Shown here piece by piece: positions 6,649 through 46,269 of a DNA stretch of 64,000 bases. Within the stretch, counting starts at the first letter, position 1. Each line of letters begins with the position of its first letter. The stretch is from Candidatus Woesearchaeota archaeon (GTDB taxonomy: Archaea > Nanobdellota > Nanobdellia > Woesearchaeales > ARS49): assembly GCA_014729505.1 (NCBI GenBank), contig WJJS01000001.1:12938-76937 (forward strand). Reading direction: 5' to 3'. The notes beneath the pieces are model-generated. The model was not told where the DNA came from, ran no database searches, and saw nothing but the letters and a program-made list of their open reading frames with translations. The position numbers were made by a program, and so were the translations under genes.

Positions 6649-7491
6649 ATGGTGAATGCAAGCGACCTGCTCACAACAACATACGTAACCTGTGATGTAA
6701 ACGACAGAATCTCCTCATTATTAGGAAAAATGAAACGAGCACAGGAAGGAGCTGCAGTCGTAACAAAAAAAGGAAACTATCTTGGCATTGTACATCGCAG
6801 TGCATTTCTCGTCTCGCGAGCGCATGCCAGCGATACAAAAGTAGCAAATATTTACCAACGCCGAAGCAAAGCAAAATCAAACTTTTTTGTACCAACATTA
6901 TCACGCACTTCTTCACTGCCAGTCATGTGCAAACGCATGCTGCAAAGCAATTCACGCATGCTGCCCGTCATGGAAAAAGACCGACTAATAGGAGTAGTTA
7001 AAGATATGGAGTTACTTAAGGCGATAGCTCCAGATTTCTCATCAATACCTGCATTTGAACTGGCAAGCACAGATTCAATAACGGTGAGAGAAAACAACGT
7101 TATTTATGCGGCCATGACTGCTATGAAAAAACACAAGATCGGACACATTCCTGTAGTGGATAAGAACGGAAAACTGTTAGGAATCCTCAGCGGTTATGAT
7201 TATCTGGAAATGCACTTACACTCACGATCACGAATGCATCAGTCACGCAAAGGAACACATTCTGACTACAAAAACCGAGGATTTGATACGGGCGAAAAAA
7301 TAAGTCTTGGAGACTTACCAGTACGAGATTTTATGAGCGAAAAAGTAATCACTGCAACGCCGCGCACAACAATCGCACAATGCATACAACTCATGATAGA
7401 CAATAATGCGCACAGCATTGTTCTCACACGATACGACAAGCCAGTAGGAGTACTTACCTGTCACGATATATTTATTCACGCCGCTCAATAG
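6649..7491 (+). CDS. CBS-domain pair protein (two tandem CBS pairs)
   Basis: Repeated hydrophobic-G-hhxxxD CBS-like segments (LGIVHRSAFL, LIGVVKDMELL, LLGILSGYDYL, VGVLTCHDIF); no other domain recognised. Confidence 0.55.
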   Translation: MVNASDLLTTTYVTCDVNDRISSLLGKMKRAQEGAAVVTKKGNYLGIVHRSAFLVSRAHASDTKVANIYQRRSKAKSNFFVPTLSRTSSLPVMCKRMLQSNSRMLPVMEKDRLIGVVKDMELLKAIAPDFSSIPAFELASTDSITVRENNVIYAAMTAMKKHKIGHIPVVDKNGKLLGILSGYDYLEMHLHSRSRMHQSRKGTHSDYKNRGFDTGEKISLGDLPVRDFMSEKVITATPRTTIAQCIQLMIDNNAHSIVLTRYDKPVGVLTCHDIFIHAAQ

Positions 7492-8320
7492 AAACGCCGG
7501 GAGTAAGAAGTTCCCGCGTAGATAAAGGACAGACAAACGAGGGCAACACTGGTTCTCCAGTACTTCGATTTTCAATTGTCGCGTCATGTCGTGATTGATC
7601 TCTTGAAAGAATGGCTCCGCGTGTTGCACGAAAATGAGTATACAAACGCGCAGCAAGTTCTTGCTCTGTAGGACCAACAATAGTATATTGTTGTCCATTG
7701 GACAATAAATGAACCTGCAACGGCATCTTATACGGCAAAACCAGTTCAGGACCATGAGCACTATTATCAAGATCCTGAGCAGACGCTGCAGAACCATTAG
7801 GATGCGAATGCCAGGTCAGTACATACTCGTGATTCGTTTGAGGACGACCATACGTGTGAGGCAAAATATGTTGACGAGCAACATGTTCAAGAACCTTACA
7901 ATCATCATCACTCCATTCATTTTTTGAAAGCAAAGGACGCGCTTTATCAATCGCTTCTACAACGCCAGTATTACCGGTACGCACGTGCACCCGGCGGGCG
8001 CGAGCAAACAGGCTCTTCATATTGTCAAGATGCTGTGCAGAACCCTCACGTAATTCATTGACATACTCGATCAAGTCAAGAAATTCATTACGCAAAGGAA
8101 CAACAATATAGCGTCCGTTACTCTCGCGGACAATACCGCCAGTTTCATACCCTTGTGTCAACTCGTGATTAGTCTGACTAAGCAAATCACTGCGTGTTTG
8201 ACTGTCCTCAAGCATTTGCATAACGCGAGGACGAATCTCGTCAAGAGAAATGGTGTGCTCGGGCGCGGTACAACCCGCAAGACCGGCCAGTACTATTGTT
8301 GCTAAACGTCGTCCACTCAT
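7472..8320 (-). CDS. Secreted lipoprotein, hypothetical (signal peptide + lipobox LAGC); contains HSHP...D motif
   Basis: N-terminus MSGRRLATIVLAGLAGCTAPE = signal peptide with canonical lipobox L-A-G-C; immediately downstream of lgt in same orientation. Confidence 0.5.
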   Translation of the reverse strand: MSGRRLATIVLAGLAGCTAPEHTISLDEIRPRVMQMLEDSQTRSDLLSQTNHELTQGYETGGIVRESNGRYIVVPLRNEFLDLIEYVNELREGSAQHLDNMKSLFARARRVHVRTGNTGVVEAIDKARPLLSKNEWSDDDCKVLEHVARQHILPHTYGRPQTNHEYVLTWHSHPNGSAASAQDLDNSAHGPELVLPYKMPLQVHLLSNGQQYTIVGPTEQELAARLYTHFRATRGAILSRDQSRHDATIENRSTGEPVLPSFVCPLSTRELLTPGVSIERRE

Positions 8321-8344
8321 AAAATATATATTGGGAAATATATG

Positions 8345-9133
8345 TTATAAAGGTTTCGGTGATTGGCGATACTGATAATAGAGTATTGCGCTGCCCGCGA
8401 TACACATAACGATATTGAACACCTGACCCAAGGTCAAACCAAGCAGACTTGGTTCGCCCACACGCAAAAACTCAGTACAAAAGCGAAACACTGCATATAA
8501 AATGAGCCAGATCGCAAGAAGACTTCCCGGACGAAGACCGCGATCACGCAAAAGCCACAGCACTACAAAAATAACAACATTATACGCGACTTCATACAAC
8601 TGGTTTGGATGACGAAACACCAATTGACCAAAAGCGTCAGTTTCACCACCAAAATTAACACCCCAGGGAAGCGACGTGACACGACCAAACAGTTCGCCAT
8701 TAATGAAATTACCCATCCTGCCAAAGGCTTGCCCAAGGGAAAGCGGCACAATCAAAAGATCGCCAAGCGAGAGCAACGATAAGCCAAAACGACGAGCAAG
8801 AATATACGCAGTAATAATCATCGCTACAAGAGAACCATGAAAACTAAGACCACCCTTCCAAATAGCAAGAATTTCAACAGGATGAGCAAAATAATAACCG
8901 GGCTGCCAAAACAGAACCTCAAACAGCCGCGCTCCAATAATCAACGCAACAACAAGCCAGACCATGAGCGAGTCCAACTGCTCAAGAGTAAGCGCAGTCT
9001 TTTCTTGACGAATACGACGACGAACATACCAGTACGCAAACAAAAAGGCCAAGACGTACATCACGCCATACCAATGAATCCTCAAAGGGCCAATACTAAT
9101 GAGGACCGGATCAATCGTGTGAATCCATACCAT
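8345..9133 (-). CDS. lgt: Prolipoprotein diacylglyceryl transferase (Lgt)
   Basis: IDPVLISIGPLRIHWYGVMYVLAFLFAYW N-terminus and GQAFGRMGNFINGELFGR signature align with bacterial Lgt (E. coli GAGRLGNFINGELWGR); polytopic membrane protein 262 aa. Confidence 0.85.
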   Translation of the reverse strand: MVWIHTIDPVLISIGPLRIHWYGVMYVLAFLFAYWYVRRRIRQEKTALTLEQLDSLMVWLVVALIIGARLFEVLFWQPGYYFAHPVEILAIWKGGLSFHGSLVAMIITAYILARRFGLSLLSLGDLLIVPLSLGQAFGRMGNFINGELFGRVTSLPWGVNFGGETDAFGQLVFRHPNQLYEVAYNVVIFVVLWLLRDRGLRPGSLLAIWLILYAVFRFCTEFLRVGEPSLLGLTLGQVFNIVMCIAGSAILYYQYRQSPKPL

Positions 9134-9893
9134 ATGTAGCTAATGAAAAAAGACGAATAAATGATAAGAGCGGAAACAGCGCAAGACCAACAACAAATCC
9201 TGCAAAAGGACTTAACAGATTGACGCTATAGATAATGACCTGAGCGAAAGCAAGACTGCCGGCAATCACGACCATCATAGGAACAAAGAGTTTCCAACGT
9301 CGAAGCCCGAGACGAAACGCGTAACGCACATTCAAGGAACCATACGAAATAAGAGCGAAATACACAAGAGCGACAAGCAAGATATAGAACGGAATAAAAG
9401 GCCATACAGGTTTTGTCGTCGAAGTAAGCGATGCAATAAGAGTGTAGCGCAAATCAACATAGAGCAAAGCAAAAAACAACACAAGACCGGAGATAAACCA
9501 TGGCAGATTTACCAAAAAGAAACGAAGAAAAAACCTCTTGACTTCATACATAAGCAAGCGTCTAGACAAATGCCACGCCAAACCCTGAAGAACACCATAC
9601 ACGACGTAAGCAATCAAACCCGCAAGCAGCGTATATAGCACAAACCGCAGTACAAGAGGTTGCAAAGTGCTATGAGACACTAACGTCCACACACTAAACG
9701 AGTCAAGCTGTTGCAACACTTGACCGATACCAGTAGTCAGCGTAAAGGACAATTCCAGTAAACGATCAACAACAGGAGCAGTAGCAAAACCTAGCACAAA
9801 AAGAAAAGAGACATCAATAAGACCAAGAGCAAGCACCACTAACACATTGTTTTTCATCACTCGTGCAGTATAGTAAATACTCTTTTGTAACAT
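9111..9893 (-). CDS. Polytopic membrane protein, hypothetical
   Basis: Multiple hydrophobic helices throughout 260 aa; overlaps lgt start, same strand (operon). Confidence 0.45.
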   Translation of the reverse strand: MLQKSIYYTARVMKNNVLVVLALGLIDVSFLFVLGFATAPVVDRLLELSFTLTTGIGQVLQQLDSFSVWTLVSHSTLQPLVLRFVLYTLLAGLIAYVVYGVLQGLAWHLSRRLLMYEVKRFFLRFFLVNLPWFISGLVLFFALLYVDLRYTLIASLTSTTKPVWPFIPFYILLVALVYFALISYGSLNVRYAFRLGLRRWKLFVPMMVVIAGSLAFAQVIIYSVNLLSPFAGFVVGLALFPLLSFIRLFSLATYGMDSHD

Positions 9894-9894
9894 A

Positions 9895-11898
9895 TTATTT
9901 CGAACTTTTGAGATACCAATTCCTCAAACGGACAACCTTATCAACAACAGAAGGATACATATAGAACTGACCATATTTTTTTGCAGTTTTACTCAGCAAC
10001 TTATCAAGCTCAAGCATTTTGTACATCACCTGAATAGCGTCCTTTTTGCGATCGTATCTAAACAATAATTTGACAAGTTCGACGCCATCATCAGGATGTT
10101 TGGTCAACTTGTAAAAAATCTCCGCGTGAGAAACAGCCTTATCAGGATCGCCCTTTTGCGCATACAGTATAGAGATTGCTCGATGATACTGGGCAATCCA
10201 GGGCTTCTTTTTATGAAACTCATCGAGCAACTGCATTGCCTCGTCTATTCTACCCTGCGCATGAAGAATCTCTGAGTGCGCATGAACAAGATCAAACTCG
10301 CGAGTCCAAGAAGGTGCTTTATCAAGCAAAGACAGTCCCTTTTTTGGTTTTCCAACAAACGCGAGCAACACTGCTTCCCACAAAAGAAGAAACTCATTAT
10401 GAGGCGCCCTCTTACGAGCTTGTTGTACCACTCGAAGAGCGCGATCGTGATTACCGACGTGACTTAACGCGTTTATCACATGCTCTTCATATTGAAGATC
10501 CTTCTTGTGATATGGCAATCCCCTCTCAAGATACGCCAAAGCCTTTTTTGCTTTACCGTCACTGCGAGCAATACGACTGCCAGTAAGATAGCCAGTCTGA
10601 TCCTTAGGATACCACTTGATAATTTTGTCAGCTATCGGATACGCTTTGCCAGGCTTACCGAAATGATCGAAATCTTCGAGAAGAACATACAATGCGCGAA
10701 AGTTTCTGGGAAACTTCATAAGGACTTTTTTTGCCAGATCGTAATACGAGGTCCAGTCATTGCATTTTCGCAGACACTCAAGAGCAGAAAGCCAATTATC
10801 CAGGGTAGGAGGTAAGGAAAGAAACACCTTAGCAGCTTCGCGAAACCGGCCGAGCTCACGCAAGCAGGTAGCCTTTGTTTCAAGCAACACTATTGAAGAA
10901 TACTGCTTTAACTTTTTGTTTATCTCCCGCAATTTCTCCCGTTCATTGCCCTGCGTAAACAAGACATGAGGGTACAATGATGGAAGTTTGTCAATCTCAG
11001 AAGCTCTCTTCGCATATTCATGCGCCTTTTTATTCTTGCCGATGGAGAAATACAACGCAGTCAATCGGTTACACACATCAGAATTTTCAGGTTGCAAGAC
11101 TGCAAGTTTTTCATAGTCAGCAATAGCTTTCTTGACTTGATCTGTTACCATAAACAAATCAGCTCGGGCAGTGAGAATGCCTTCATCAGGACCCATCAGA
11201 GATATTGCATGTGTAAGAAACTTCTCCGCTTCACTGAATTTTCCTTCGGCTTTAAGAGAATCCACATACACCACGTAATCATATTCTGCAAATGAAAAAT
11301 TCTCTGCAAACGCTTGAGCAAAAAACTTGTTGGCCTTTTTATGCTCATGATTGTCAAAATACCGGCGTGCAAGATCAAGAAGACTGCGTGCAAGACCAAA
11401 CTTACGATGAATTAACTTCAAGGTCTGCTTATACTTCTTGTCATTTCGAGCATAATAATACAGGTGAGCGAGATCTTCATAATGAGACACTTTAAATGGT
11501 TCGAGCTTGATGACTTTCTTCATCGCGCTAAGAGCTTTAGAACTGTTTGTTTCCCTAAACAACCAATACACACGAAGAGGCCAATACACATTATTTGGTT
11601 GCCTCCTCATATACCTACGCAAAAGCCTTTCTTCACCAACAGCGTCGTGAAGCTCCCTATAGACATCAACTTTACTTTGCATAACATCAATTTCTTCAAG
11701 ACCGCACTCTCTTGCTTTGTCAAGGATTGCCAAAGCCTCCTTTTTCTTTTTGAGCTTAGAGAGTAACTCTGCTTTTCTCTGCAAATACAAAGGATGGCGA
11801 GGATTCTTTTCCAAAGCTCTATTGACGATGCGAAGCTGTTGACTAGTTGGTAAGTACGGATTAACAAACGGGAACACGGAATAGGTACAAGTCTTCAT
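9895..11898 (-). CDS. TPR-repeat protein (start chosen at MKTCTYSVFPF..., internal to the 721-aa track ORF)
   Basis: Recurrent A/Y/L-rich 34-aa repeat pattern (AxxYYxxAxxxxxxKxxxAxxxF); upstream tttaaatagtataaaaa TATA-like box supports start at 11896-11898. Confidence 0.6.
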   Translation of the reverse strand: MKTCTYSVFPFVNPYLPTSQQLRIVNRALEKNPRHPLYLQRKAELLSKLKKKKEALAILDKARECGLEEIDVMQSKVDVYRELHDAVGEERLLRRYMRRQPNNVYWPLRVYWLFRETNSSKALSAMKKVIKLEPFKVSHYEDLAHLYYYARNDKKYKQTLKLIHRKFGLARSLLDLARRYFDNHEHKKANKFFAQAFAENFSFAEYDYVVYVDSLKAEGKFSEAEKFLTHAISLMGPDEGILTARADLFMVTDQVKKAIADYEKLAVLQPENSDVCNRLTALYFSIGKNKKAHEYAKRASEIDKLPSLYPHVLFTQGNEREKLREINKKLKQYSSIVLLETKATCLRELGRFREAAKVFLSLPPTLDNWLSALECLRKCNDWTSYYDLAKKVLMKFPRNFRALYVLLEDFDHFGKPGKAYPIADKIIKWYPKDQTGYLTGSRIARSDGKAKKALAYLERGLPYHKKDLQYEEHVINALSHVGNHDRALRVVQQARKRAPHNEFLLLWEAVLLAFVGKPKKGLSLLDKAPSWTREFDLVHAHSEILHAQGRIDEAMQLLDEFHKKKPWIAQYHRAISILYAQKGDPDKAVSHAEIFYKLTKHPDDGVELVKLLFRYDRKKDAIQVMYKMLELDKLLSKTAKKYGQFYMYPSVVDKVVRLRNWYLKSSK

Positions 11899-11953
11899 AG
11901 AGTAACACCTAAGTCGAGAAAAGTTTAAATAGTATAAAAACCATACTGTTTTC

Positions 11954-12124
11954 ATGGCCAAATTGACACTACGATGCACTTCATGCAACTGGAAATTCCG
12001 CAGAGTATACGAACCAAAACTGTGTCCTAATTGTGGCAAAGCCACCGTAGAAAAAGACAAACGTCAAGGCGCTTCTGACATTCTGCGAGAACTCGACGAG
12101 ATGCAGTCGGGTTTTGATCGCTAA
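11954..12124 (+). CDS. Small zinc-ribbon protein (56 aa, two CxxC pairs)
   Basis: MAKLTLRCTSCNWKFRRVYEPKLCPNCGKATVEKDKRQG...; below ORF-track size cutoff; divergent from TPR gene. Confidence 0.4.
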   Translation: MAKLTLRCTSCNWKFRRVYEPKLCPNCGKATVEKDKRQGASDILRELDEMQSGFDR

Positions 12125-12159: not shown

Positions 12160-13257
12160 CTACGACACTTCGTGAGTTTTGTACACCACATTAAGCGCAT
12201 CAAGATTGCGCAGCACATACATGCCATCATTTTCTACAGTGCCAAGATCACTCCATGTCGCCTGAATACCCTGATAGTACTGAGCCTCTTTATTGAACAA
12301 CACTGTTGGCGTAACGTTAATAGCATATCTTGACATCAAACGCTGACCATCAGGACTGGACACATCATAGGACACCTGACTCAAGAACACCATACCAAAA
12401 TTATCCTCAAAAATGGAAGTTACTGCGGAAGTATCAGAACAGGTCTCACACGTTTCATCAGTAAGAATAATCATAGTCGCTAATCCTCTCACGGTCTTTT
12501 CTTCACGATCAACATAGGGAGCAGGAGTATCACGAAGCACGTATTTACCATCTGACTCCACAGAACCAATACTCTGCCAGCCAGCACGAATAAACTCATA
12601 CTCAGAAGCATCATTTGAAAGAATAAGAGAAGGCGTTCTTGTAATATTATAATGATCAAGAAGACGCTGACCGTCAGCACTGGATGATTCAATCGTTTCA
12701 ATAGCTGAAAAGACCATCCCATTCAGTTCCAACTGCGAAAGCAAACGCTGAGTATCAAAACATTCAGGACAATTCTCATCCTCAAGAACAAGAGCAGTCA
12801 CCAAACCAAATACTTCGCCATCAAGATTAGAATACGGAACAAGAGAGTCAGACAAGACATAACCACTATCACTTTTTACAAACAAAGGAATCTGATCAAG
12901 ACGAGGATCAGCACCCTCAATAACAATAGCCGGCAATTTTTCAATAGAGAACTCCTCAATCAAAGATACTGCCTGGGCTTGCGTCTTATACTCCACTTCT
13001 TCAAAGACAAGACCTGCAAGTTCCAAAGCCTGAACAATCTCAGACGCGTTTACACACTGATCACAAAACGGTTGAATAACAGTTGCACGCAGTGAGGATG
13101 ATTCACTAGGCACAATGTCAATAACCGGTTCCTCGCCAGCGCGAGAAACGTAAAAAGACAAGATCACATTAGCCAACGTTGCAATAACAATCAAAACAAC
13201 GAGCAATACATGCAGCGTCGTCCACGGTGATTGCATCTTTTTTGCTGACATAGACAA
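12160..13257 (-). CDS. Membrane-anchored protein with three tandem thioredoxin/glutaredoxin-like domains, each with a CxxC motif (CDQC, CPEC, CETC)
   Basis: N-terminal TM helix then three ~100-aa repeats beginning hhhhxxxxCxxC and ending NhTxTPohhh (Trx-fold pattern). Confidence 0.5.
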   Translation of the reverse strand: MSMSAKKMQSPWTTLHVLLVVLIVIATLANVILSFYVSRAGEEPVIDIVPSESSSLRATVIQPFCDQCVNASEIVQALELAGLVFEEVEYKTQAQAVSLIEEFSIEKLPAIVIEGADPRLDQIPLFVKSDSGYVLSDSLVPYSNLDGEVFGLVTALVLEDENCPECFDTQRLLSQLELNGMVFSAIETIESSSADGQRLLDHYNITRTPSLILSNDASEYEFIRAGWQSIGSVESDGKYVLRDTPAPYVDREEKTVRGLATMIILTDETCETCSDTSAVTSIFEDNFGMVFLSQVSYDVSSPDGQRLMSRYAINVTPTVLFNKEAQYYQGIQATWSDLGTVENDGMYVLRNLDALNVVYKTHEVS

Positions 13258-16036: not shown

Positions 16037-16831
16037 CTATTTTCGCGTTGATTTCCTGCTTTTTTTCTTCGTTGCCTTCTTCTTTTTACGCGAAACAGAT
16101 TTTTTTGCGGTTTTCTTTACAGGTTTTTTTGCTTCTTTAGACCTGCCCGTTGATTTTTTAACATTTTTTTTACGCGCCTTGATCGAAGGAATAACCGGTT
16201 CTTCAGGTTCCACAAGAGGAGACTTACTGCGACGACGAGAACGCCAAGCGCCTACCATGATCATGATAAACACTCCAATGAGTACAATCATAAGAGCAGA
16301 AAAGAACGTCACGCCGGAGACTCCCTGAATGATGCCAGTAAAAAAATACCCTGTCCATGCAAGAGCAAACAGCACGTACAGTACCACCGCAATCGTCGCT
16401 ACCGCCTTGACCAAGAAGTCAGCAATCCTGCTTGACGGAAACATAAGCAAGATAGGCAACAATACCAAAACAAATGCGATAATAAGAAGAAAAAGCGATA
16501 CAATAAGAGCGACAACAAGGAAAAAAGACGTAACAGTCACATACGACCATGCAATAAGATGCTGCATATATGAAGCTTGAGCGCCAACAACGAGCGTTGT
16601 CACATACGTATATGCCGCAGCAAGAACCACACCAATAACACAGTATGACCAGCGAACTACAGCACGCGCAACAGGATGGGCAACGTCACGAAGACCTGCC
16701 TTAACAAAAGAAAACAACAACGCAGCAACAGCAATAATAATAGCGGATTCCCACAATACCGTAGAACTCACCGTTTGAGCGATATCATGAGGCCTCCACA
16801 ATAAGGAGAGAAAAGCATACCAGTCGATCAT
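16037..16831 (-). CDS. Polytopic membrane protein with C-terminal lysine-rich tail (KKxxKKxVSRKKKKATKKKSRK)
   Basis: Hydrophobic helices + highly basic 50-aa tail; ATGA overlap with upstream gene. Confidence 0.5.
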   Translation of the reverse strand: MIDWYAFLSLLWRPHDIAQTVSSTVLWESAIIIAVAALLFSFVKAGLRDVAHPVARAVVRWSYCVIGVVLAAAYTYVTTLVVGAQASYMQHLIAWSYVTVTSFFLVVALIVSLFLLIIAFVLVLLPILLMFPSSRIADFLVKAVATIAVVLYVLFALAWTGYFFTGIIQGVSGVTFFSALMIVLIGVFIMIMVGAWRSRRRSKSPLVEPEEPVIPSIKARKKNVKKSTGRSKEAKKPVKKTAKKSVSRKKKKATKKKSRKSTRK

Positions 16832-17517
16832 TTTTTATTCCTCTTTCTTACTTTACGAGTCCTGGTAGTATAAGTTTCTTTCGCTGCTGTCGCTCTACGA
16901 AAAAAACCAGAACCTCGCTCAAGAAGACGACCCCACACGCCACGAGCAGAACCGATCAGTGCTGCACCGATTACTGCAAACAATACAACAGCTGCAGAGG
17001 AAAAGCGACTGATCTCGTTTGCATGAGCAACAGAAGTAATATGAACGATCAAACCAAAAAGGAAGGAAACAAACGAAAAGATCCACGTACAAATGACGAT
17101 CCATCCAATTATTGAAGGCATTTTATCATTTTTAACTACTCCTCGATTTTCGAAGAATACATACGTCCTAAGAAACAGAAAGTAAAGACCTGCAAGGAGA
17201 ATACCATACACCCCGATAATCACTGTAACAGTCAACATTACATAGAGCAAAAAAGCCACATTGATCTGAAAATCCACCACGCCACTAAAAAGAGCGCTTG
17301 CCAGAGTGATATATACCCAGTATCCTAGAAGAAACGCTGCAGTAGCAGCAAAACGTACCGCCCTGGTCTTCAAAGAAATAAGGACTTCATGTTTGCGTTT
17401 TCCGCTGCCAAGCGCTGCAAGAGCGAGCAGAATCACCACACCAATAGAAATGGTGATGCCCTCAATAAAATGTGCGGGCGGCACAGCCACTGAAATGATA
17501 AAATCACTGAATGTCAT
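16828..17517 (-). CDS. Polytopic membrane protein, hypothetical
   Basis: Hydrophobic helices; basic C-terminal tail. Confidence 0.45.
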   Translation of the reverse strand: MTFSDFIISVAVPPAHFIEGITISIGVVILLALAALGSGKRKHEVLISLKTRAVRFAATAAFLLGYWVYITLASALFSGVVDFQINVAFLLYVMLTVTVIIGVYGILLAGLYFLFLRTYVFFENRGVVKNDKMPSIIGWIVICTWIFSFVSFLFGLIVHITSVAHANEISRFSSAAVVLFAVIGAALIGSARGVWGRLLERGSGFFRRATAAKETYTTRTRKVRKRNKK

Positions 17518-20135: not shown

Positions 20136-20253
20136 GGCGGAGTGGCTTAGCCTGGTTAGAGCACCGCGCTCATAGGTCATACCTTTGAGCACTGAGCTTT
20201 CGAGCTATGACGAAGAAACGCGGGGGTCACGAGTTCAAATCTCGTCTCCGCCA
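20136..20253 (+). tRNA. tRNA-Met (CAT) with ~43-nt intron at the canonical 37/38 position
   Basis: Acceptor GGCGGAG/CTCCGCC, anticodon stem CCGCG..CGCGG, loop CTCATAG, T-arm ACGAGTTCAAATCTCGT, discriminator A; intron gtcatacctttgagcactgagctttcgagctatgacgaagaaa. Confidence 0.75.
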
Positions 20254-30889: not shown

Positions 30890-31126
30890 ATGCCATACGA
30901 TAAAAGTCTTGATAAACAGCTCTTTAGTGAGTCAGTAGAATTTGAAACCACGAGACTAACAGTTAGTGTATTCTCGTACAACGACGGAACACCAAAAATC
31001 CAGATCGCCAGAGAAAATAAGAACCGCGACGGAGAATGGCAGTTTGCAAAGCTTGGCCGCATGGTCAAAGCAGAAGCTGAAGCCGTCTTACCACTACTCA
31101 AGAAAGCGGTAGAATCACTCGATTAG
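30890..31126 (+). CDS. PC4/YdbC-like ssDNA-binding domain protein
   Basis: RLTVSVFSYNDGTPKIQIARENKNRDGEWQFAKLGRMVKAEAEAVLPLL resembles PC4-like fold pattern; GGGGG SD-like upstream. Confidence 0.45.
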   Translation: MPYDKSLDKQLFSESVEFETTRLTVSVFSYNDGTPKIQIARENKNRDGEWQFAKLGRMVKAEAEAVLPLLKKAVESLD

Positions 31127-31470
31127 CGCGATAAGTGCACTTCAGTAGCATTGTCGCCAGATCCTATAACGACATAAACATCAGTACGTTCTTGATCGAA
31201 AAACACGGTGTACGGCAACGTTCCCCCATCAGATTGAAGAGCAGTCGTCGCGTAGCACATCGATTTATTCTTATATGCTGTCATACCCTGAATAACGGTT
31301 TTCACACCATCTTCAGTCGTTAATTCTCCTGCTTTACACCACTCCGTGGAAGGAGCGGATGGTGCAGTTATGACTCCAGCATTCTTGGAACTCGTCGTTT
31401 TCAGCGTTTGCTGACAAGCGCTCATCAACAATAAAGACACTAGGATCATCACTACACACAATCGTTTCAT
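31123..31470 (-). CDS. Secreted lipoprotein, hypothetical (lipobox LMSAC)
   Basis: MKRLCVVMILVSLLLMSACQQ signal peptide. Confidence 0.5.
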   Translation of the reverse strand: MKRLCVVMILVSLLLMSACQQTLKTTSSKNAGVITAPSAPSTEWCKAGELTTEDGVKTVIQGMTAYKNKSMCYATTALQSDGGTLPYTVFFDQERTDVYVVIGSGDNATEVHLSR

Positions 31471-33863: not shown

Positions 33864-35107
33864 ATGCAATGCAAAGACAATAATAAAGTTTATAGCAAAC
33901 GTCATGTTCTTACCAGTATGCGCGTTTTTGAAAGAGGGGAACTGAGACTCTTATGGCCGTTTTATGCCGATTATCTACTATCACAACTACTCTTTTTTGC
34001 ACCAGCGTTTTACATCGTGTATTTTCTGGATATTGGCCTGTCCTTGTTTCAGTTAGGACTTGTTATGGCTGCAGCACCACTGGCAGGTCTGCTCTTTGAG
34101 ATTCCAACAGGAGCCGTAGCAGATCTGTACGGGAGAAAATTTTCAGTCCTGCTAAGCTTTCTACTGGTAGCAGCAGGTTATTTGCTTCTCTTCTTCTTTA
34201 CAAGTATCCCAGCACTTATTGCCATTTTTGCGTTAATCGGATTTGCAGGAACATTCTGGTCGGGAGCAAAAGATGCGTGGGTTGTTGATCTTATAGGAAA
34301 AAGAAAAACATTACTCCAAATTATTTTGCAAAAGCAGATTTTCTCAGCAGTCTTGGACTAGTCATATCAGGCATCCTTGGAGCGTTCATTGTTGAAGTCA
34401 TTGGCCTACGATCCATATGGTTATTTGCTGCAGGTGCGTACGCGATATCATTTGTAGTTCTACTCACAGCCCCTGAACGTTATCGCAGACGACACACTTC
34501 ATTTAGTCGAGCTCTTAAAACTGTAACACAACAAAGCGGGGATGCGTTACGATACTGTCGAATGCACCACATACTTTACGCATTTTTCATTGCAAGCGCT
34601 CTTTGGCTTATCGCAGGAGCAATAGGAGGAGTCATGGCATGGACACCCTTTCTTATCGAACTTGGTTTTGCAGAACAACACTTTGGCTACTTGTGGAGTG
34701 CGATGGCCGTAGTACAAATGATGGGACTTGCCATCTCACAATTCGCTCTAAAAACGATCTCGTCTCGAAAAGTGATCATTGTTGCCCAGTCATTGTTTGC
34801 TGCAACTCTCCTTGCCGTGTATTGGGTATCTTCACTGCCGTTTGCGTTGTTACTGGTACTGTTTAGCATCTTATTTGCCTCAGCAAAAGCACCTTCATTA
34901 AACGTGTTCTTTCATCGGTTTACTCCTTCATACATGAGAGCAACCATCGGTTCAGTCAAGGCAACACTCGGCGCAGCTATAGCCATACTCATGATGCCGA
35001 TTTCAGGACATTTTATTGACACTATAGGTGCTCAAAACGCATTATTTAGCGCGGGACTTGCATTACTGCCTGCAGTAGGGATATACCTGCTAATGAAAGA
35101 ACACTAA
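33864..35107 (+). pseudogene. MFS-family transporter interrupted by a frameshift in an A-run near 34300 (track ORFs 33864-34361 and 34562-35107)
   Basis: Shifting frame at gaaaaagaaaaacatt gives continuous ...LIGKRK/NITPNYFAKADFLSSLGLVISGILGAFIVEVIGLRSIWLFAAGAYAISF...RYCRMHHILYAFF joining the second ORF; 12-TM topology overall. Confidence 0.5.
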
Positions 35108-35133: not shown

Positions 35134-36117
35134 TTGACCAAAAAGAGAATGTATGATATCATTACTATAGGATCCGGTACTGTCGACGTATTTGTAGAAA
35201 CAGAAGACAAGCAAATAGTGCCGCACAACAATCATCAAGACGTTTGCTATCACATCGGGGACAAAGTACTCATCAAACGATTGCAGCACAGCACCGGTGG
35301 CGGAGGAACAAACAGTGCTGTAGGATTCTCGCGTATGGGACTCAACACTGGCTGGATAGGTCAAGTAGGCCAAGACGCGAATATGCACTATATTATGGAA
35401 ACGCTGCAACAAGAACGCGTCACCTTTCTTGGCAACTGTTCAAAGGGTATGAGCGGTTACAGCGTTATACTCGTCGGACTGCGAAAAGACAGAACGATAC
35501 TTACCTACAAAGGAATCAACAATATGCTTGCCGTAAAGGACAAGGATCTCAAACAATTGAAAACGAAATGGTTCTATTTCTCATCAATGATGGACAAAAG
35601 CTTACGCACGCAAAAAAAGATAGCACAACACGCTAAGAAAAAAGGCATACGATATGCGTACAATCCGAGCTGTTACCTCGCAGAAAAAGGAATGAGAGTG
35701 CTCGGACCCATTGTACGAGGAGCCACAGTGCTTGTAATGAACGCACAAGAAGCAGCATACTTGCTTGACACTTCGCCACAACAAAAAGCAGAGAATGCCA
35801 GAGCACTCACCAAGTACGGCCAGTACGGTATTGTCACCGACGGGCCGCGGGAAGGCTATGCAAGCGACGGTACTCATCTGTACGTGTGGAAACCACGAAA
35901 AGCAAAAATCGTCGAAACAACAGGAGCAGGAGACAGTTTTGCTGTTGGAGTTGTCACAGGCATTATCAAAGGCATGACCCTAGCACAATCACTACAATTA
36001 GGCTATGCAAATGCAGTTTCAGTACTCGGAGAGATCGGTGCAAAAAACAACTTGCTCACATATCGTAATGCTCGACGAGAACTAAGGGAACATCCAGTGA
36101 GGGTAAAACGAATATGA
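35134..36117 (+). CDS. PfkB-family carbohydrate/nucleoside kinase
   Basis: IGSGTVDVF N-terminal GG-like motif, TTGAGDSFAVG anion-hole/DTxGAGD motif. Confidence 0.75.
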   Translation: MTKKRMYDIITIGSGTVDVFVETEDKQIVPHNNHQDVCYHIGDKVLIKRLQHSTGGGGTNSAVGFSRMGLNTGWIGQVGQDANMHYIMETLQQERVTFLGNCSKGMSGYSVILVGLRKDRTILTYKGINNMLAVKDKDLKQLKTKWFYFSSMMDKSLRTQKKIAQHAKKKGIRYAYNPSCYLAEKGMRVLGPIVRGATVLVMNAQEAAYLLDTSPQQKAENARALTKYGQYGIVTDGPREGYASDGTHLYVWKPRKAKIVETTGAGDSFAVGVVTGIIKGMTLAQSLQLGYANAVSVLGEIGAKNNLLTYRNARRELREHPVRVKRI

Positions 36118-37028
36118 TTATATCACTCAAACGTATGCTTGCACAAGCGAACAAGAAAAACTACGCTGTTGGCGCGTACAACATCAATAACATGGAATTT
36201 GTCCAAGCAGTTGTCAGCGCAAGCGAAAAAATGAACAGTCCAGCAATAATCTCGACAACAGAGGGAGCAATACGTTACGCAGGCATGCCATACCTGAAAA
36301 CGCTCGTCTACACGGCAGCAGCACACACAAAAATACCTATCACGTTTCATCTCGATCACGGAAGAGATTTTACGGTGATCAAACAAGCGATAAAAGCGGG
36401 ATACTCCTCAATAATGTATGACGGCAGTCATCTGCCTTTCAAAGAAAATGTTCGCAACACTGCAAAAGTCGTGCGATGGGCGCACAAAAAAGGAGTCAGC
36501 GTTGAAGGAGAACTAGGAACTATAGGTGGTGCAGAAGATCTCGTCAGTTCAAGAGAAATTATCTATACCGATCCAGACACTGCAAAAGAGTTCGTCGAAA
36601 AAACAGGAGTTGATGCACTCGCAATTGCTATTGGGACCAGTCACGGCGCGTACAAATTTTCAAGCACACCAACACTTGATATTGCGCGCCTCAAAACAAT
36701 AAAAAAACTCACTAAACTACCGCTCGTACTGCACGGCGCAAGTGAAGTACCACAATATCTGGTACGACAAGCGAACCGCTATGGAGCAACACTTGGCAAA
36801 GCTCGAGGAGTGCCAGACGCACAAATACGACAAGCAGTCAAGCACGGCATCAATAAAGTCAACGAGGATACGGACTTGCGCTTAGCATTTCTAGCCTCAA
36901 CTAGAAAAACACTCGTAAAACAACCAAGCGTATTTGATCCGCGAAAAATCCTTGGACCCGCACGAGATTACGTACAAAAAATCGTCGAGGATCGCATCAA
37001 ACTTTTAGGGAGTAAAGGTAAAGCATGA
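36114..37028 (+). CDS. fba: Class II fructose/tagatose-1,6-bisphosphate aldolase
   Basis: YAVGAYNINNMEF, FHLDHG, GELGTIGG, class II (metal) aldolase pattern; 304 aa. Confidence 0.8.
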   Translation: MIISLKRMLAQANKKNYAVGAYNINNMEFVQAVVSASEKMNSPAIISTTEGAIRYAGMPYLKTLVYTAAAHTKIPITFHLDHGRDFTVIKQAIKAGYSSIMYDGSHLPFKENVRNTAKVVRWAHKKGVSVEGELGTIGGAEDLVSSREIIYTDPDTAKEFVEKTGVDALAIAIGTSHGAYKFSSTPTLDIARLKTIKKLTKLPLVLHGASEVPQYLVRQANRYGATLGKARGVPDAQIRQAVKHGINKVNEDTDLRLAFLASTRKTLVKQPSVFDPRKILGPARDYVQKIVEDRIKLLGSKGKA

Positions 37029-37465
37029 AGGTTATACTAGGAGCAGATCATGCAGGATTCGCACTCAAAGAACACCTAAAAAAATACTTGAGCGCAAAAG
37101 GATACGACGTAATTGATCTTGGTGCAACAGTTCTCAAACCACGCGATGATTACCCAGACTATGCTGCTCGAGTTGCAAAACGCGTCGTAAAGCATAACGA
37201 ACCAGGCATTCTGGTGTGCGGCAGTTCTGAAGGCGTCTGCATTGCAGCAAACAAATTCAAAGGCATACGAGCAGTCTCGGCATGGTCAAAAAAAGTAGCA
37301 AAACTATCAAGAGAGCACGATAATGCAAACATACTCTGCTTATCAGGGTGGTTGCTCAGTAAAGAAAAGGCAAGCGGTATAGCTGACACGTTCTTAAGCA
37401 CGGCTTTTTCTAAGGAACCACGGCATGTCCGCCGTCTCAAAAAGATCGAAAAACTAGAACAATGA
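37025..37465 (+). CDS. rpiB: Ribose-5-phosphate isomerase B (RpiB/LacAB family)
   Basis: MKVILGADHAGFALKEHLKKYLSAKGYDVIDLG, GILVCGSSEGVCIAANK. Confidence 0.8.
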   Translation: MKVILGADHAGFALKEHLKKYLSAKGYDVIDLGATVLKPRDDYPDYAARVAKRVVKHNEPGILVCGSSEGVCIAANKFKGIRAVSAWSKKVAKLSREHDNANILCLSGWLLSKEKASGIADTFLSTAFSKEPRHVRRLKKIEKLEQ

Positions 37466-38088
37466 TACGCGTCATCCCCGCAGTCAATGCCACAACAATG
37501 CTGGCTTTACGAAAAAACATCTCAATCGCAGAAACACTCAGTCCACTTATTGACGTCGATATTTGTGATGGAAGATTCGTCGCGCGAAAAACGGTTTCCT
37601 TAACTCAATTACGAGGTCTGACAACAAAAAAGTTGAGCATTGATTATATGGGTCAACATCCAGCACGTGCGTTTGTTCGACTGCCAAAAAACACGTATCG
37701 TTTTGTGTTCCACGTCGAGGTAGCCAATGATATCGATGCTCTTATACGACGCTGTAAAGCACATAAGATCATTGCATCAATAGGATTGAATCCCGAGACT
37801 CCTGTTTCGAGTATCGCAAAGTATCTGGGTAAAGGAGTGCAGGTTCATCTCCTCACAGTACATCCAGGAAAAAGCGGACAAGAACTCATCCCTTCAGTAT
37901 TGCAAAAGGTGCGAAAGATCAAAAAGATACGGGAAGACACAAGGATTGGTATTGACGGAGGAGTAAACCTCAAGACCGCGAAACTGATCAAACGATATCC
38001 GCTCAACTATGTCTCAGCAACGTCAGCAATCTTTGGCGCAAAAGACCCAAAGAACGCGTTTAGGGAACTTAAGAAGGCGCTCAACTAG
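37462..38088 (+). CDS. rpe: Ribulose-phosphate 3-epimerase-like TIM-barrel protein
   Basis: LLTVHPGKSGQELI and GIDGGVN resemble Rpe MxVxPGFGGQ / DGG motifs; ATGA overlap with rpiB. Confidence 0.6.
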   Translation: MIRVIPAVNATTMLALRKNISIAETLSPLIDVDICDGRFVARKTVSLTQLRGLTTKKLSIDYMGQHPARAFVRLPKNTYRFVFHVEVANDIDALIRRCKAHKIIASIGLNPETPVSSIAKYLGKGVQVHLLTVHPGKSGQELIPSVLQKVRKIKKIREDTRIGIDGGVNLKTAKLIKRYPLNYVSATSAIFGAKDPKNAFRELKKALN

Positions 38089-42882: not shown

Positions 42883-43659
42883 ATGCACAAAGCATTAACG
42901 ATAGTATTGCTAGGAATTCTTCTAGTTGGATGCTCAACAACACTAGACACGTCGTCGACAAATCCGCCAACAGCGCCGCACTCAACTTCAAGTCCTCCAA
43001 CAACACAACACCCCGCAACAGAGAACAATTCACAACACACCACAACACAAAATGATTCACAATATCCGACAACGCAGAACGATTCACAACACACGGCAAC
43101 CAATGACTACGTTGCGGGACGAGAACTCTTCAAACTACAACGGGATTCAGACAGTGCACTGGGACAACGAGTAACAGACTTTTTCCCACTTCCTGCAGGA
43201 GCAGTTCTTGTCGAGACAAGACATTTTGGAGCGCAACAATTCAAAGCAAATCTTGTATCAAAAACAGGAGACATATTTCCTTTAGTCAATGATGAAGGAT
43301 ACATTCTTACCACTACGCTGCACTCTTTTGCGGCAGGCCAGTACCTGCTAGACATGATCATCAATGGCGAAGTTACCTTTATCATACGAACACCGGACAT
43401 AGAAGAAGCAACATCATGGAGCGGAGCCGGCAAGAAGTTCACCCCCTTCTTTACACTTTCAGGAACCAACACCTTTGAGATGTCGTTTCAAGGAAATGGA
43501 TTATACATCGTGTCACTATACAATCAAGCAGGAGAACGCATCGCCGTACTTGCACAAGGCGACACCACAGAAAAAACAAACACTGACGTAACCGTACCAC
43601 AAGGACTCTATCTGTTAGGTATAGAATCAACAGGAGTCTGGGACATACAACTCAAATAA
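42883..43659 (+). CDS. Secreted lipoprotein with Thr/Ser/Gln-rich linker (lipobox LLVGCS), hypothetical
   Basis: MHKALTIVLLGILLVGCSTT signal peptide; repeated NDSQ(H/Y)(T/P)TTQ units. Confidence 0.55.
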   Translation: MHKALTIVLLGILLVGCSTTLDTSSTNPPTAPHSTSSPPTTQHPATENNSQHTTTQNDSQYPTTQNDSQHTATNDYVAGRELFKLQRDSDSALGQRVTDFFPLPAGAVLVETRHFGAQQFKANLVSKTGDIFPLVNDEGYILTTTLHSFAAGQYLLDMIINGEVTFIIRTPDIEEATSWSGAGKKFTPFFTLSGTNTFEMSFQGNGLYIVSLYNQAGERIAVLAQGDTTEKTNTDVTVPQGLYLLGIESTGVWDIQLK

Positions 43660-43671
43660 TTCCAACTACTT

Positions 43672-44157
43672 CTAATTAAGAGCGACAATCGCCGTATTAA
43701 GAAGAGTGGCAAACAAAACCCAGAACGCATAAGGAAGCAACAACCACAACGTGACCTTATTCACACGATAAAATGCGCTTATCATACCAACAATCGCGCC
43801 GTTGAGCAGAATAATGTCAACCAGCGCCGCCAAAGGATTCTGCAAACCAAAAAATAAGATACTCCATAACATATTAAGAACCCAATGAGCTGCAAACCAG
43901 TACGACGCGTTCTTATCAGGCCAGACAAGATAGAGTGCAATACCAATAAGCGTGAATAAGGTAAGCCACACCGGGCCAAACAACCATGAAGGAGGTTGAA
44001 ATGCGGGAAAGGTCAATGTCAAATACCACGTTCTCACACTACTCGCGGTAAAAAAACTTCCAATAAATCCCGCTGCATGGGAGATAAGCAAGCACAGAGC
44101 AAGAGTACGCCATCGCATACGTATAAGAAAGCTCCAGAGTTTTTTAAGATTATGCAA
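43672..44157 (-). CDS. tspO: TspO/MBR family tryptophan-rich sensory protein
   Basis: PSWLFGPVWLTLFTLIGIALYLVW, 5 TM, Trp-rich. Confidence 0.8.
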   Translation of the reverse strand: MHNLKKLWSFLIRMRWRTLALCLLISHAAGFIGSFFTASSVRTWYLTLTFPAFQPPSWLFGPVWLTLFTLIGIALYLVWPDKNASYWFAAHWVLNMLWSILFFGLQNPLAALVDIILLNGAIVGMISAFYRVNKVTLWLLLPYAFWVLFATLLNTAIVALN

Positions 44158-46145: not shown

Positions 46146-46269
46146 TCCCCGCCCCCGGACTTGAACCAGGAACCTCGCGGTGACGGCTGACTCGCCTTCA
46201 CGTCTCGAGCGTTGCTCGGAATCAGTTGAGTTTCTACAGCCGCGCGCTCTACCATTGAGCTAGGCGGGG
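46146..46269 (-). tRNA. tRNA-Tyr (GTA) with ~52-nt intron at canonical position
   Basis: Reverse complement: CCCCGCC TA GCTCAATGGTAGAGC G CGCGG CTGTAGA [intron] CCGCG AGGTT CCTGGTTCAAGTCCGGG GGCGGGG A; C1:G72 as expected for archaeal Tyr. Confidence 0.8.

Follow-up and report, generated by a model that had tools for sequence, protein, structure and literature searches.

Archaeal membrane lipids have ether-linked isoprenoid chains and the opposite glycerol stereochemistry to bacterial lipids. The prolipoprotein diacylglyceryl transferase Lgt has been stated to be absent from archaea (mBio 2026, PMC13251419), and the bacterial lipoprotein enzymes more generally to have no known archaeal homologs (PMC6098224; Nat Commun 2025, PMC12462473; JBC 2026, PMC13631571). 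The absence of Lgt has served as an argument that archaeal lipids need different enzymes. The lipoprotein lipidation proteins described in Haloferax volcanii are AliA and AliB (arCOG02177 and arCOG02178; PMC12462473, PMC13631571), of which AliA occurs in DPANN archaea "with some gaps" (PMC12462473). In DPANN, lipoproteins are predicted to be widespread (PMC12462473). Halocyanin of Natronomonas pharaonis, a classic archaeal lipoprotein, is a lipid-modified cupredoxin (cited in PMC12462473).

Here we describe an Lgt gene in a 64-kb stretch of woesearchaeal DNA (hereafter the window). Together with its DPANN relatives, which form a conserved clade with intact catalytic residues, it is a direct, clade-wide, and unreported exception to the statements of Lgt absence made in papers from 2018 to 2026.

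A full-length Lgt homolog in Woesearchaeota

8345..9133, (-) strand: Lgt (prolipoprotein diacylglyceryl transferase homolog), 262 aa, with matches to PF01790, TIGR00544, and 5AZB

This open reading frame (ORF) carries the motifs IHWYG and GRMGNFINGELFGR. It matches PF01790 over profile positions 1 to 240 of 240 (E = 1.1e-70; 238.1 bits; cutoff, 24.9) and scores 216.8 bits against TIGR00544, a full-length, equivalog-level match (cutoff, 118.9). The Escherichia coli Lgt structure 5AZB is matched with E = 4e-44 (query residues 6 to 260, chain residues 11 to 288). All nine essential E. coli Lgt residues are kept, and the 5AZB alignment is concordant: Y22, H99, R139, N142, E147, G150, Y213, R217, and E221 of the ORF correspond to Y26, H103, R143, N146, E151, G154, Y235, R239, and E243 of the E. 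coli enzyme. Each is also kept in 115 to 120 of the 120 closest relatives, with exceptions that are mostly alignment gaps or truncations. A crude hydropathy scan gave six peaks for the ORF, and the solved enzyme has seven transmembrane (TM) helices.

By its sequence, then, 8345-9133 is a genuine full-length member of the Lgt family. An earlier note on this DNA had called it a bacterial-type Lgt of 262 aa. The family models, the structure match, and the nine residues bear this out. The archaeal enzyme is also predicted to be catalytically competent. An NCBI protein that is 100% identical to the ORF has already been automatically named Lgt and is assigned to Candidatus Woesearchaeota archaeon.

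Archaeal context of the gene

The window is part of a metagenome-assembled genome, and contamination is a general risk in DPANN bins. We therefore weighed three kinds of artifact: contamination by bacteria, chimerism of the contig, and a transfer of very recent date into a single genome. The window codes for aEF-2, EF-1α, a thermosome, RpoA', an archaeal GluRS, Rad50, and PolB. Archaeal genes flank Lgt on both sides of a single contig, with the GluRS gene about 4 kb away and those for EF-1α, aEF-2, the thermosome, and RpoA' farther off. Related loci contain EF-1α, EF-2, S10, histone, and diphthamide synthase, and the gene order Trx-like - partner - Lgt - Ca-ATPase - glycogen synthase is common to independent assemblies from other samples. 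The GC content (0.454) and GC3 (0.426) of the Lgt gene are inside the range of the neighboring genes.

The markers, the repeated gene order, and the neighbor-like composition together exclude contamination, which the earlier note had likewise considered unlikely. The artifact explanation is further opposed by the occurrence of the partner-Lgt pair in 11 distinct archaeal modules and by nearest relatives that are archaeal. It is effectively refuted, and we give it next to no probability. As a separate observation, ARAGORN made no call for two tRNA matches in the window (118 and 124 nt), and this points to introns in them.

Relationship to other Lgt sequences

At least 116 related sequences, 46 to 65% identical to the window Lgt, cluster with it in neighbor-joining (NJ) trees, where support for the group ranges from weak to moderate, and those among them with an organism name all come from DPANN archaea. 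The best bacterial matches are 35 to 46% identical. All 16 of the named top matches are archaeal (13 Woesearchaeota, 1 Aenigmarchaeota, 1 Nanoarchaeota, and 1 "archaeon"). The earlier note had proposed a phylogeny to see whether the nearest neighbors are bacterial, and they are not. Lgt is widespread in Woesearchaeota, Nanoarchaeota, and Aenigmarchaeota and has already been automatically annotated there. Its description as uncommon in archaea thus holds for the literature but not for these lineages. A scan of GTDB genomes with the conserved motifs as patterns was swamped by bacteria and returned one archaeal locus, so it does not serve as a species census.

An NJ tree placed 116 DPANN sequences apart from 79 bacterial sequences in 125 of 200 bootstrap replicates. 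Support for archaeal monophyly dropped when Firmicutes, Actinobacteria, and Bacteroidota Lgt sequences from plasmid records were added. With these phyla included, a group of archaea with or without one low-GC bacterium appeared in 146 of 200 replicates, and strict archaeal monophyly received only about 40% bootstrap support. The NJ trees from both data sets recovered no donor lineage or deep placement.

We infer that, most likely, a bacterial lgt gene entered DPANN once, long ago, and was then inherited and spread among these archaea. The native composition of the gene indicates that any transfer from bacteria is old. The horizontal acquisition suggested by the earlier note is therefore supported in a refined form, as an old and clade-wide event and not a recent one in a single genome.

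A different history would make DPANN Lgt ancestral: an Lgt that existed before LUCA or early in archaea would have been passed down vertically, with AliA branching off from it later and no bacterial transfer. Consistent with this, AliA (arCOG02177) is possibly derived from the Lgt family (Hong et al., PMC12462473), and the archaeal sequences separate from the sampled bacteria in the NJ tree. The archaeal group also joins the larger tree near the junction of Terrabacteria and Gracilicutes, and the identities of archaeal Lgt to each sampled bacterial group (38 to 41%) are slightly lower than those between the bacterial groups (42 to 65%). However, identity between archaeal Lgt and the Proteobacteria, Nitrospirota, and Desulfobacterota proteins is about 40%, and both sets are only 25 to 33% identical to the plasmid-borne Firmicutes, Bacteroidota, and Streptomyces copies. 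Moreover, Lgt is limited to a subset of DPANN among the sequences examined, recent surveys detected none outside DPANN among archaea (PMC13251419, PMC12462473), and many bacterial genes are known in DPANN genomes (PMC8204110). We therefore regard vertical descent as very unlikely and favor the old bacterial transfer.

The conserved operon partner of Lgt

9111..9893, (-) strand: conserved membrane partner of Lgt specific to DPANN, 260 aa, about six TM helices, CTL1/PNS1/CysZ-like predicted fold
7472..8320, (-) strand: predicted lipoprotein, 282 aa, signal peptide MSGRRLATIVLAGLAGC, lipobox LAGC, Cys17

The earlier note had placed Lgt in an operon with the lipobox lipoprotein. The linkage itself stands, with 7472-8320 beginning 24 nt past the Lgt stop codon on the same strand, but a conserved partnership does not. 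A homolog search with the lipoprotein returned only itself, a search of PDB sequences gave no match, and the gene is missing from the syntenic locus L092 and the syntenic P0003 contig. Weak collinear similarity (E = 9e-5) links it to a lipobox protein downstream of Lgt at the Aenigmarchaeota locus L085. Its assignment as a JAB/JAMM metalloprotease (PF14464) stays below threshold: the Prok-JAB score is 19.8 bits against a cutoff of 25, and HSHPNGSAASAQD is one residue short in the spacer of the E...HxHx7Sx2D motif. The gene downstream of Lgt is an orphan insertion specific to its lineage.

The truly conserved operon partner of Lgt is instead the upstream gene 9111-9893, whose stop codon overlaps the Lgt start by 23 nt. 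The partner lies directly upstream of Lgt, overlapping or abutting it, in 11 of the 12 archaeal modules, and it was found beside lgt at none of 79 bacterial loci. When two distant partner homologs were taken as starting points, an Lgt gene was directly downstream of both.

The partner belongs to a new, tightly linked, and previously undescribed protein family. It is matched by no Pfam or NCBIfam model, and a Pfam scan of 120 family members (E ≤ 0.01) likewise found none, including PF04515 (Choline_transpo). A word-indexed search with the partner alignment returned three proteins only, as the index fails on this hydrophobic family; an exhaustive HMM search defined the family as only 314 clusters. 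A profile search of PDB sequences was empty, and Foldseek gave no significant match to the PDB. An AlphaFold2 model from three sequences was unusable (pLDDT, 61) and was rebuilt with 120. The predicted structure shares the CTL/SLC44 fold (the next match scores 6.8), and a conserved arginine pair is absent from the family. The possibility that the partner is a divergent Lgt paralog was ruled out (hhalign probability, 0.1%). From its gene linkage, we propose that the partner may work with Lgt, for example, in lipid donor presentation or headgroup handling.

Farther upstream are two more genes:

9895..12060, (-) strand: TPR-repeat protein matching multiple TPR Pfam families, ending 1 nt before the partner start
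12160..13257, (-) strand: membrane-anchored thioredoxin-like protein with three CxxC repeats and Thioredoxin_2/_3 and Glutaredoxin matches

The TPR-repeat gene is probably co-transcribed with the partner but is not a conserved feature of related loci: in L090, L092, and the P0003 contig, the partner and the thioredoxin-like gene have no TPR gene between them. The thioredoxin-like gene is a recurrent neighbor of the partner-Lgt module. Its product is 33% identical to the L090 homolog (E = 1e-62), and the P0003 contig and L092 encode, close to the module, proteins comparable in size and family.

Lipobox proteins as candidate substrates

31123..31470, (-) strand: predicted lipoprotein and candidate Lgt substrate, 115 aa, MKRLCVVMILVSLLLMSAC, ...LLLMSAC, Cys19
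42883..43659, (+) strand: predicted lipoprotein and candidate Lgt substrate, 258 aa, MHKALTIVLLGILLVGC, ...ILLVGC, Cys17

Both of these lipobox proteins had been pointed out before and were confirmed here. The first has no family match, and the family matches of the second are all below threshold.

We then asked how often a lipobox prefix is followed by cysteine, using 168 called genes pooled from the window and seven related loci. Where the prefix stands in an N-terminal signal-peptide context, cysteine follows in 18 of 106 cases (17%), which is 12-fold above the background cysteine frequency of 1.4% (binomial p = 1.8e-14). For prefixes internal to proteins, which served as a control, the count is 7 of 587 (1.2%). 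Lipobox proteins are thus truly enriched. This test of cysteine versus other residues in called genes replaced a null model based on shadow ORFs, which misclassified real small lipoprotein genes lying under longer antisense ORFs. Around the modules, 15 of 113 called genes carry lipoboxes, cupredoxins among them, and lipobox genes repeatedly adjoin the partner-Lgt module in a same-strand cluster.

A proposed lipoprotein pathway

No LspA (PF01252) was found by phmmer with E. coli LspA, a query validated against solved LspA structures, in the window and 14 archaeal loci (about 237 kb). The sole weak match (L001, 3755-4102; E = 0.02) is an MscL channel, and none of the seven small membrane ORFs of the window matches PF01252. 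A complete bacterial Lgt-LspA-Lnt pathway is therefore not demonstrated.

We consider it quite probable that this woesearchaeal archaeon has a catalytically competent Lgt that derives from an old bacterial transfer, is coupled to its partner, and lipidates lipobox proteins. Proteins with lipobox signal peptides, three of which are encoded in the window and one directly downstream of Lgt, would be exported. Lgt would then move a diradylglyceryl group from a glycerol-headgroup phospholipid to the thiol of the lipobox cysteine with release of glycerol phosphate. Phosphatidylglycerol or its archaeal analog archaetidylglycerol is a candidate donor. Some peptidase would subsequently cut off the signal peptide. 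With Lgt translationally coupled in DPANN to the lineage-specific six-helix partner (9111-9893), the module would provide a bacterial-type lipoprotein route, beside or instead of the haloarchaeal AliA/AliB.

DPANN Lgt might instead have been repurposed, for example, for phospholipid headgroup or lipid remodeling with its CTL-like partner, while an AliA-type enzyme from another part of the genome lipidates the lipobox proteins. The report of AliA in DPANN, gaps notwithstanding (PMC12462473), would fit this alternative, as would the failure to find LspA nearby. The DPANN-specific partner, with no counterpart beside bacterial lgt, is also a hint of modified function. Yet the residues used for prolipoprotein modification in E. 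coli, including H103 and Y235, are all kept across the clade, lipobox genes recur in the same-strand cluster adjoining the module, and by its score the window protein is a full-length Lgt at the equivalog level. Repurposing thus appears unlikely to us, and lipidation of lipobox proteins is the reading that we retain.

Much more tentatively, and with the balance somewhat against it, an Lgt module with a CTL/CysZ-fold partner may make lipoproteins in a large part of DPANN, where it would replace or complement AliA/AliB. The lipid substrate can be read in two ways. The Lgt fold, aided by the partner, may act on archaeal ether lipids of opposite stereochemistry, in which case lipoprotein lipidation would not be bound by the "lipid divide." Alternatively, the membranes of these archaea may contain bacterial-type glycerol-3-phosphate (G3P) phospholipids, either self-made or scavenged. 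In line with this second reading, some Woesearchaeota have been reported to carry bacterial genes for G3P dehydrogenase and for fatty acids (PMC8204110). It is now testable whether an Lgt-fold enzyme uses archaeal lipids, which lipids Woesearchaeota actually have, and whether Lgt fills the DPANN gaps in the distribution of AliA.

Comparison with known systems

The woesearchaeal protein resembles bacterial Lgt (E. coli 5AZB/5AZC) in being collinear over its full length, with 35% identity to the E. coli enzyme and up to 46% to proteins from Burkholderiales metagenome-assembled genomes. It has the GRxGNFINGELxGR signature together with all of the essential residues, and the same genome encodes candidate substrates with lipoboxes. 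It differs in that its host is an archaeon and in having a shorter head-domain region (262 versus 291 aa), the gaps falling opposite E. coli residues ~160 to 195. In addition, neither LspA nor Lnt was seen near the archaeal gene, and its translational coupling to a membrane partner specific to DPANN has no counterpart beside bacterial lgt.

Small cupredoxins with lipobox signal peptides, of the same protein class as halocyanin, adjoin the partner-Lgt module in related DPANN loci (L082, 10792-11220; L090, 3175-4001), whereas the window encodes no such cupredoxin, and modification of the DPANN proteins is a prediction. Like Lgt, AliA and AliB are polytopic membrane proteins, and the role proposed for them is the same: to join a membrane lipid to the cysteine of the lipobox in proteins that archaea export. 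However, the similarity of AliA to Lgt is marginal (HHpred probability, 29%; PMC12462473), whereas the window protein is an unambiguous Lgt.

The predicted fold of the partner resembles that of CTL/SLC44 proteins (yeast PNS1, 9F63; human CTL1, 7WWB) and CysZ (3TX3), but sequence similarity to them is not detectable, and the partner has about 6 helices compared to 10 in PNS1. To our knowledge, the only other proteins with a fold of this type are CysZ and the eukaryotic CTL/PNS1 proteins, and what the latter do is a matter of debate (PMC13160678). A genetic tie to Lgt is a new finding for proteins of this kind; if the tentative reading above holds, it would be the first functional clue for the CTL/PNS1 fold, pointing to lipid handling. 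Coupling to a phospholipid-using enzyme in 11 of 12 modules makes the partner a concrete lead for the CTL/PNS1/CysZ fold.

Identification and genomic context of a predicted archaeal Lgt

Three adjoining genes of the Candidatus Woesearchaeota window are considered here:

9111-9893, minus strand: membrane protein of ~260 aa; 23-nt overlap of its end with the Lgt start
8345-9133, minus strand: predicted Lgt of 262 aa, carrying 'IHWYG' and GRMGNFINGELFGR
7472-8320, minus strand: lipobox protein of 282 aa, starting MSGRRLATIVLAGLAGC; 24 nt after Lgt

Judged from its sequence, the middle gene encodes a prolipoprotein diacylglyceryl transferase (Lgt), as an earlier note had proposed from an N-terminal motif and a signature. 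The entire Pfam model PF01790 is covered (E=1.1e-70), the TIGR00544 equivalog model scores 216.8 bits (cut-off 118.9), and the E. coli Lgt structure 5AZB aligns with residues 6-260 (E=4e-44). In alignments, all essential E. coli residues (Y26, H103, R143, N146, E151, G154, Y235, R239, and E243) are retained, and each is kept in 115-120 of the 120 closest relatives. The E. coli sequence used for this comparison is consistent with the 5AZB alignment.

The window also encodes aEF-2, EF-1α, a thermosome subunit, RNA polymerase A', an archaeal-type GluRS, Rad50, and a family-B polymerase, and the GC (0.454) and GC3 (0.426) of lgt are inside the range of adjoining genes. Furthermore, the gene order Trx-like, membrane protein, Lgt, (convergent CBS), Ca-ATPase, and glycogen synthase is common to independent assemblies (a 128-kb JGI contig and locus L092). 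Contamination, chimerism, and recent transfer of the gene are therefore excluded, in agreement with the earlier view that a contaminating bacterial contig was unlikely. An NCBI entry on a 79-kb contig, 'prolipoprotein diacylglyceryl transferase [Candidatus Woesearchaeota archaeon]', is 100% identical to the window Lgt.

Other features were recorded in the window. Two Rfam tRNA matches of 118 nt (20136-20253, plus) and 124 nt (46146-46269, minus) are not called by ARAGORN, and thus are probably intron-containing archaeal tRNA genes. A sugar-phosphate cluster (35134-38088, plus; 43672-44157, minus) includes a PfkB kinase, class II fructose-bisphosphate aldolase, RpiB, and ribulose-phosphate 3-epimerase, with a TspO/MBR protein in the same region; some of these genes may be of typically bacterial kinds. 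The N- and C-terminal halves of the MFS_1 transporter model fall on separate short ORFs (33864-34361 and 34562-35107, both plus), in what looks like a split or disrupted MFS gene. Two six-helix membrane ORFs (16037-16831 and 16828-17517, both minus) overlap by 4 nt, and neither matches Pfam or NCBIfam.

A conserved operon partner upstream of Lgt

The earlier note had placed Lgt in an operon with the downstream lipoprotein. The lipobox neighbor is indeed adjacent and on the same strand, but the conserved operon partner of Lgt is the upstream ORF at 9111-9893, and the lipoprotein is an orphan. A homologue search with the latter returned only itself, and the syntenic loci (the 128-kb JGI contig and L092) lack it. 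The first downstream protein of the Aenigmarchaeota locus L085 has weak collinear similarity to it, including an HxH…S..D motif (E=9e-5). The JAB assignment of the window's lipoprotein falls below threshold, and a twin arginine in the signal peptide of that lipoprotein (residues 3-9, SGRRLATIV) recalls a Tat motif.

By comparison, a homologue of the partner, 252-284 aa long, is likewise placed upstream of Lgt in the ten further distinct archaeal modules that have one, including those of Aenigmarchaeota and Nanoarchaeota (L086), where the two genes overlap by 1-23 nt, abut, or are separated by 1 nt. The sole exception among archaeal loci is L001, which is without a partner. A partner-family HMM found no match around any of 79 bacterial Lgt genes when up to 10 kb was taken on either side. 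For two distant family members used as starting points, the gene immediately downstream was in both cases an Lgt. Among 1.84 billion representatives, 314 clusters at 50% identity belong to the family.

The partner matches neither Pfam nor NCBIfam, and none of 120 family members has a Pfam match. A relationship to Lgt was rejected (hhalign probability 0.1%). A confident AlphaFold model from 120 sequences (pLDDT 96, pTM 0.89) has a predicted CTL1/PNS1/CysZ-like fold, and a Foldseek search with it against the PDB found nothing. A 2026 structural study (PMC13160678) describes the CTL/PNS1 fold as unusual, of unknown function and probably non-transport, with lipid-like densities in a groove and a resemblance to CysZ.

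In many related loci, an ORF of 44-46 aa with a single helix and a conserved LFPTPxPQAFA-like C-terminal motif precedes the partner gene, often accompanied by a single-helix ORF of ~60-105 aa (Cys-containing in L082). Neither was detectable in the window by tblastn. Short single-helix ORFs near the partner are as follows:

L082: 9047-9184, 8716-9036
L085: 2160-2300, 1863-2159
L086: 2256-2393
L088: 9077-9211, 8886-9074
L087: 3929-4243
L093: 6736-7050

Lipobox proteins and putative redox neighbors

Two further lipobox ORFs named in the earlier note are present:

31123-31470: …LLLMSAC, Cys19
42883-43659: …ILLVGC, Cys17

Lipoboxes were counted with a PROSITE-type prefix in 168 called genes, pooled from seven related loci and the window. 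Cysteine follows the prefix in 18 of 106 cases in an N-terminal signal-peptide context, an enrichment over the 1.4% cysteine background (p=1.8e-14); inside proteins the same prefix is followed by cysteine at the background rate (7/587). Lipoboxes occur in 15 of the 113 called genes of loci around Lgt, and in related loci many lie in a same-strand cluster adjoining the partner-Lgt module. These include two cupredoxins in L090, a cupredoxin next to a list of smaller proteins such as the 117-aa one in L082, a run of three proteins in L085 (its first member with a non-canonical FAGC box that fails the pattern used for the 15/113 count), and small proteins in L087, L088, and L093.

Another recurrent neighbor, no more than a few genes from the module, is anchored in the membrane and contains three thioredoxin-like repeats with one CxxC apiece (CDQC, CPEC, and CETC). 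It occurs in the window (12160-13257, minus), L090 (1414-2472), L092 (4269-5360), and the 128-kb JGI contig, and the window and L090 copies are 33% identical (E=1e-62). In L082, L087, and L093, the module is followed by small glutaredoxin-like genes. Together, these genes hint at a thiol-redox theme connected with the cysteine that would be lipidated.

Distribution and phylogeny of DPANN Lgt

The 120 best database matches are 47-64% identical to the window Lgt, and all 16 organism-named sequences among them are archaeal (13 Woesearchaeota, 1 Aenigmarchaeota, 1 Nanoarchaeota, and 1 'archaeon'). At all related loci examined, there are archaeal genes or the partner that is specific to DPANN. Because a scan of the GTDB species representatives was patterned on universal Lgt motifs, its output was mostly bacterial; the best bacterial Lgt sequences (Burkholderiales, Nitrospirota, Desulfobacterota, and Bdellovibrionota) reach 36-45% by tblastn. 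The nearest neighbors, which the earlier note had suggested checking for bacterial origin, are archaeal.

A neighbor-joining (NJ) tree puts 116 DPANN sequences and 79 bacterial sequences on cleanly separate sides (bootstrap 125/200). On average, the archaeal sequences are 38-41% identical to any one of the bacterial groups sampled, and those groups are 42-65% identical among themselves. A larger data set added Firmicutes, Actinobacteria, and Bacteroidota copies from plasmid records, which are 25-33% identical to archaea and to Proteobacteria, except for Collinsella (41-44%) and E. faecalis, whose truncated copy was left out of the tree. Strict archaeal monophyly then had ~40% bootstrap, and 'archaea with or without L041' appeared in 146/200 replicates. 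We conclude that the DPANN sequences belong together in a single group, for which support is weak to moderate.

The L041 Lgt (DAOVYC010000035.1, 981-1778) joins the DPANN clade in 93/200 bootstraps of the larger tree and may hint at the donor lineage. L041 is an unclassified bacterial MAG of low GC (40%), whose contig carries bacterial DnaB, GlmS, and a lipobox DUF192-like protein and is without the partner gene.

Because Lgt is universal in bacteria and patchy in archaea, transfer from bacteria to archaea is the most economical reading. This reading agrees with the horizontal acquisition proposed earlier.

Other steps of the pathway and known lipidation systems

A phmmer search with E. coli LspA, a query validated against solved LspA structures, found no LspA in the window and 14 archaeal loci (~237 kb); a single weak match in the archaeal loci was MscL. 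PF01252 matched none of the small membrane ORFs of the window and is absent from the gene tables of related loci. The window holds no lipid-synthesis genes. Bacterial G3P dehydrogenase and fatty-acid genes are reported from some Woesearchaeota (Castelle et al., PMC8204110) and bear on the lipid donor. We infer the enzyme activity of DPANN Lgt and its lipid donor, as well as what the partner does and the step that cleaves the signal peptide.

The earlier note had called Lgt uncommon in archaea. Full-text searches for Lgt together with DPANN lineage names yielded no report of an archaeal Lgt; in Woesearchaeota, Nanoarchaeota, and Aenigmarchaeota, the enzyme is widespread. Given also the automatically annotated NCBI entry, archaeal Lgt is, as far as the literature searched shows, familiar to annotation pipelines and not to the field. 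The original observation is thus confirmed and its interpretation supported.

For archaeal lipoprotein lipidation, Hong et al. propose AliA/AliB in place of the bacterial enzymes, and they note that DPANN are rich in lipoproteins and have AliA 'with some gaps' (PMC12462473). According to a paper of August 2026, too, homologues of the bacterial lipoprotein enzymes are unreported in archaea (PMC13631571). DPANN Lgt adds a new archaeal branch to a known family, and its partner is a newly found protein that is obligatorily linked to it.
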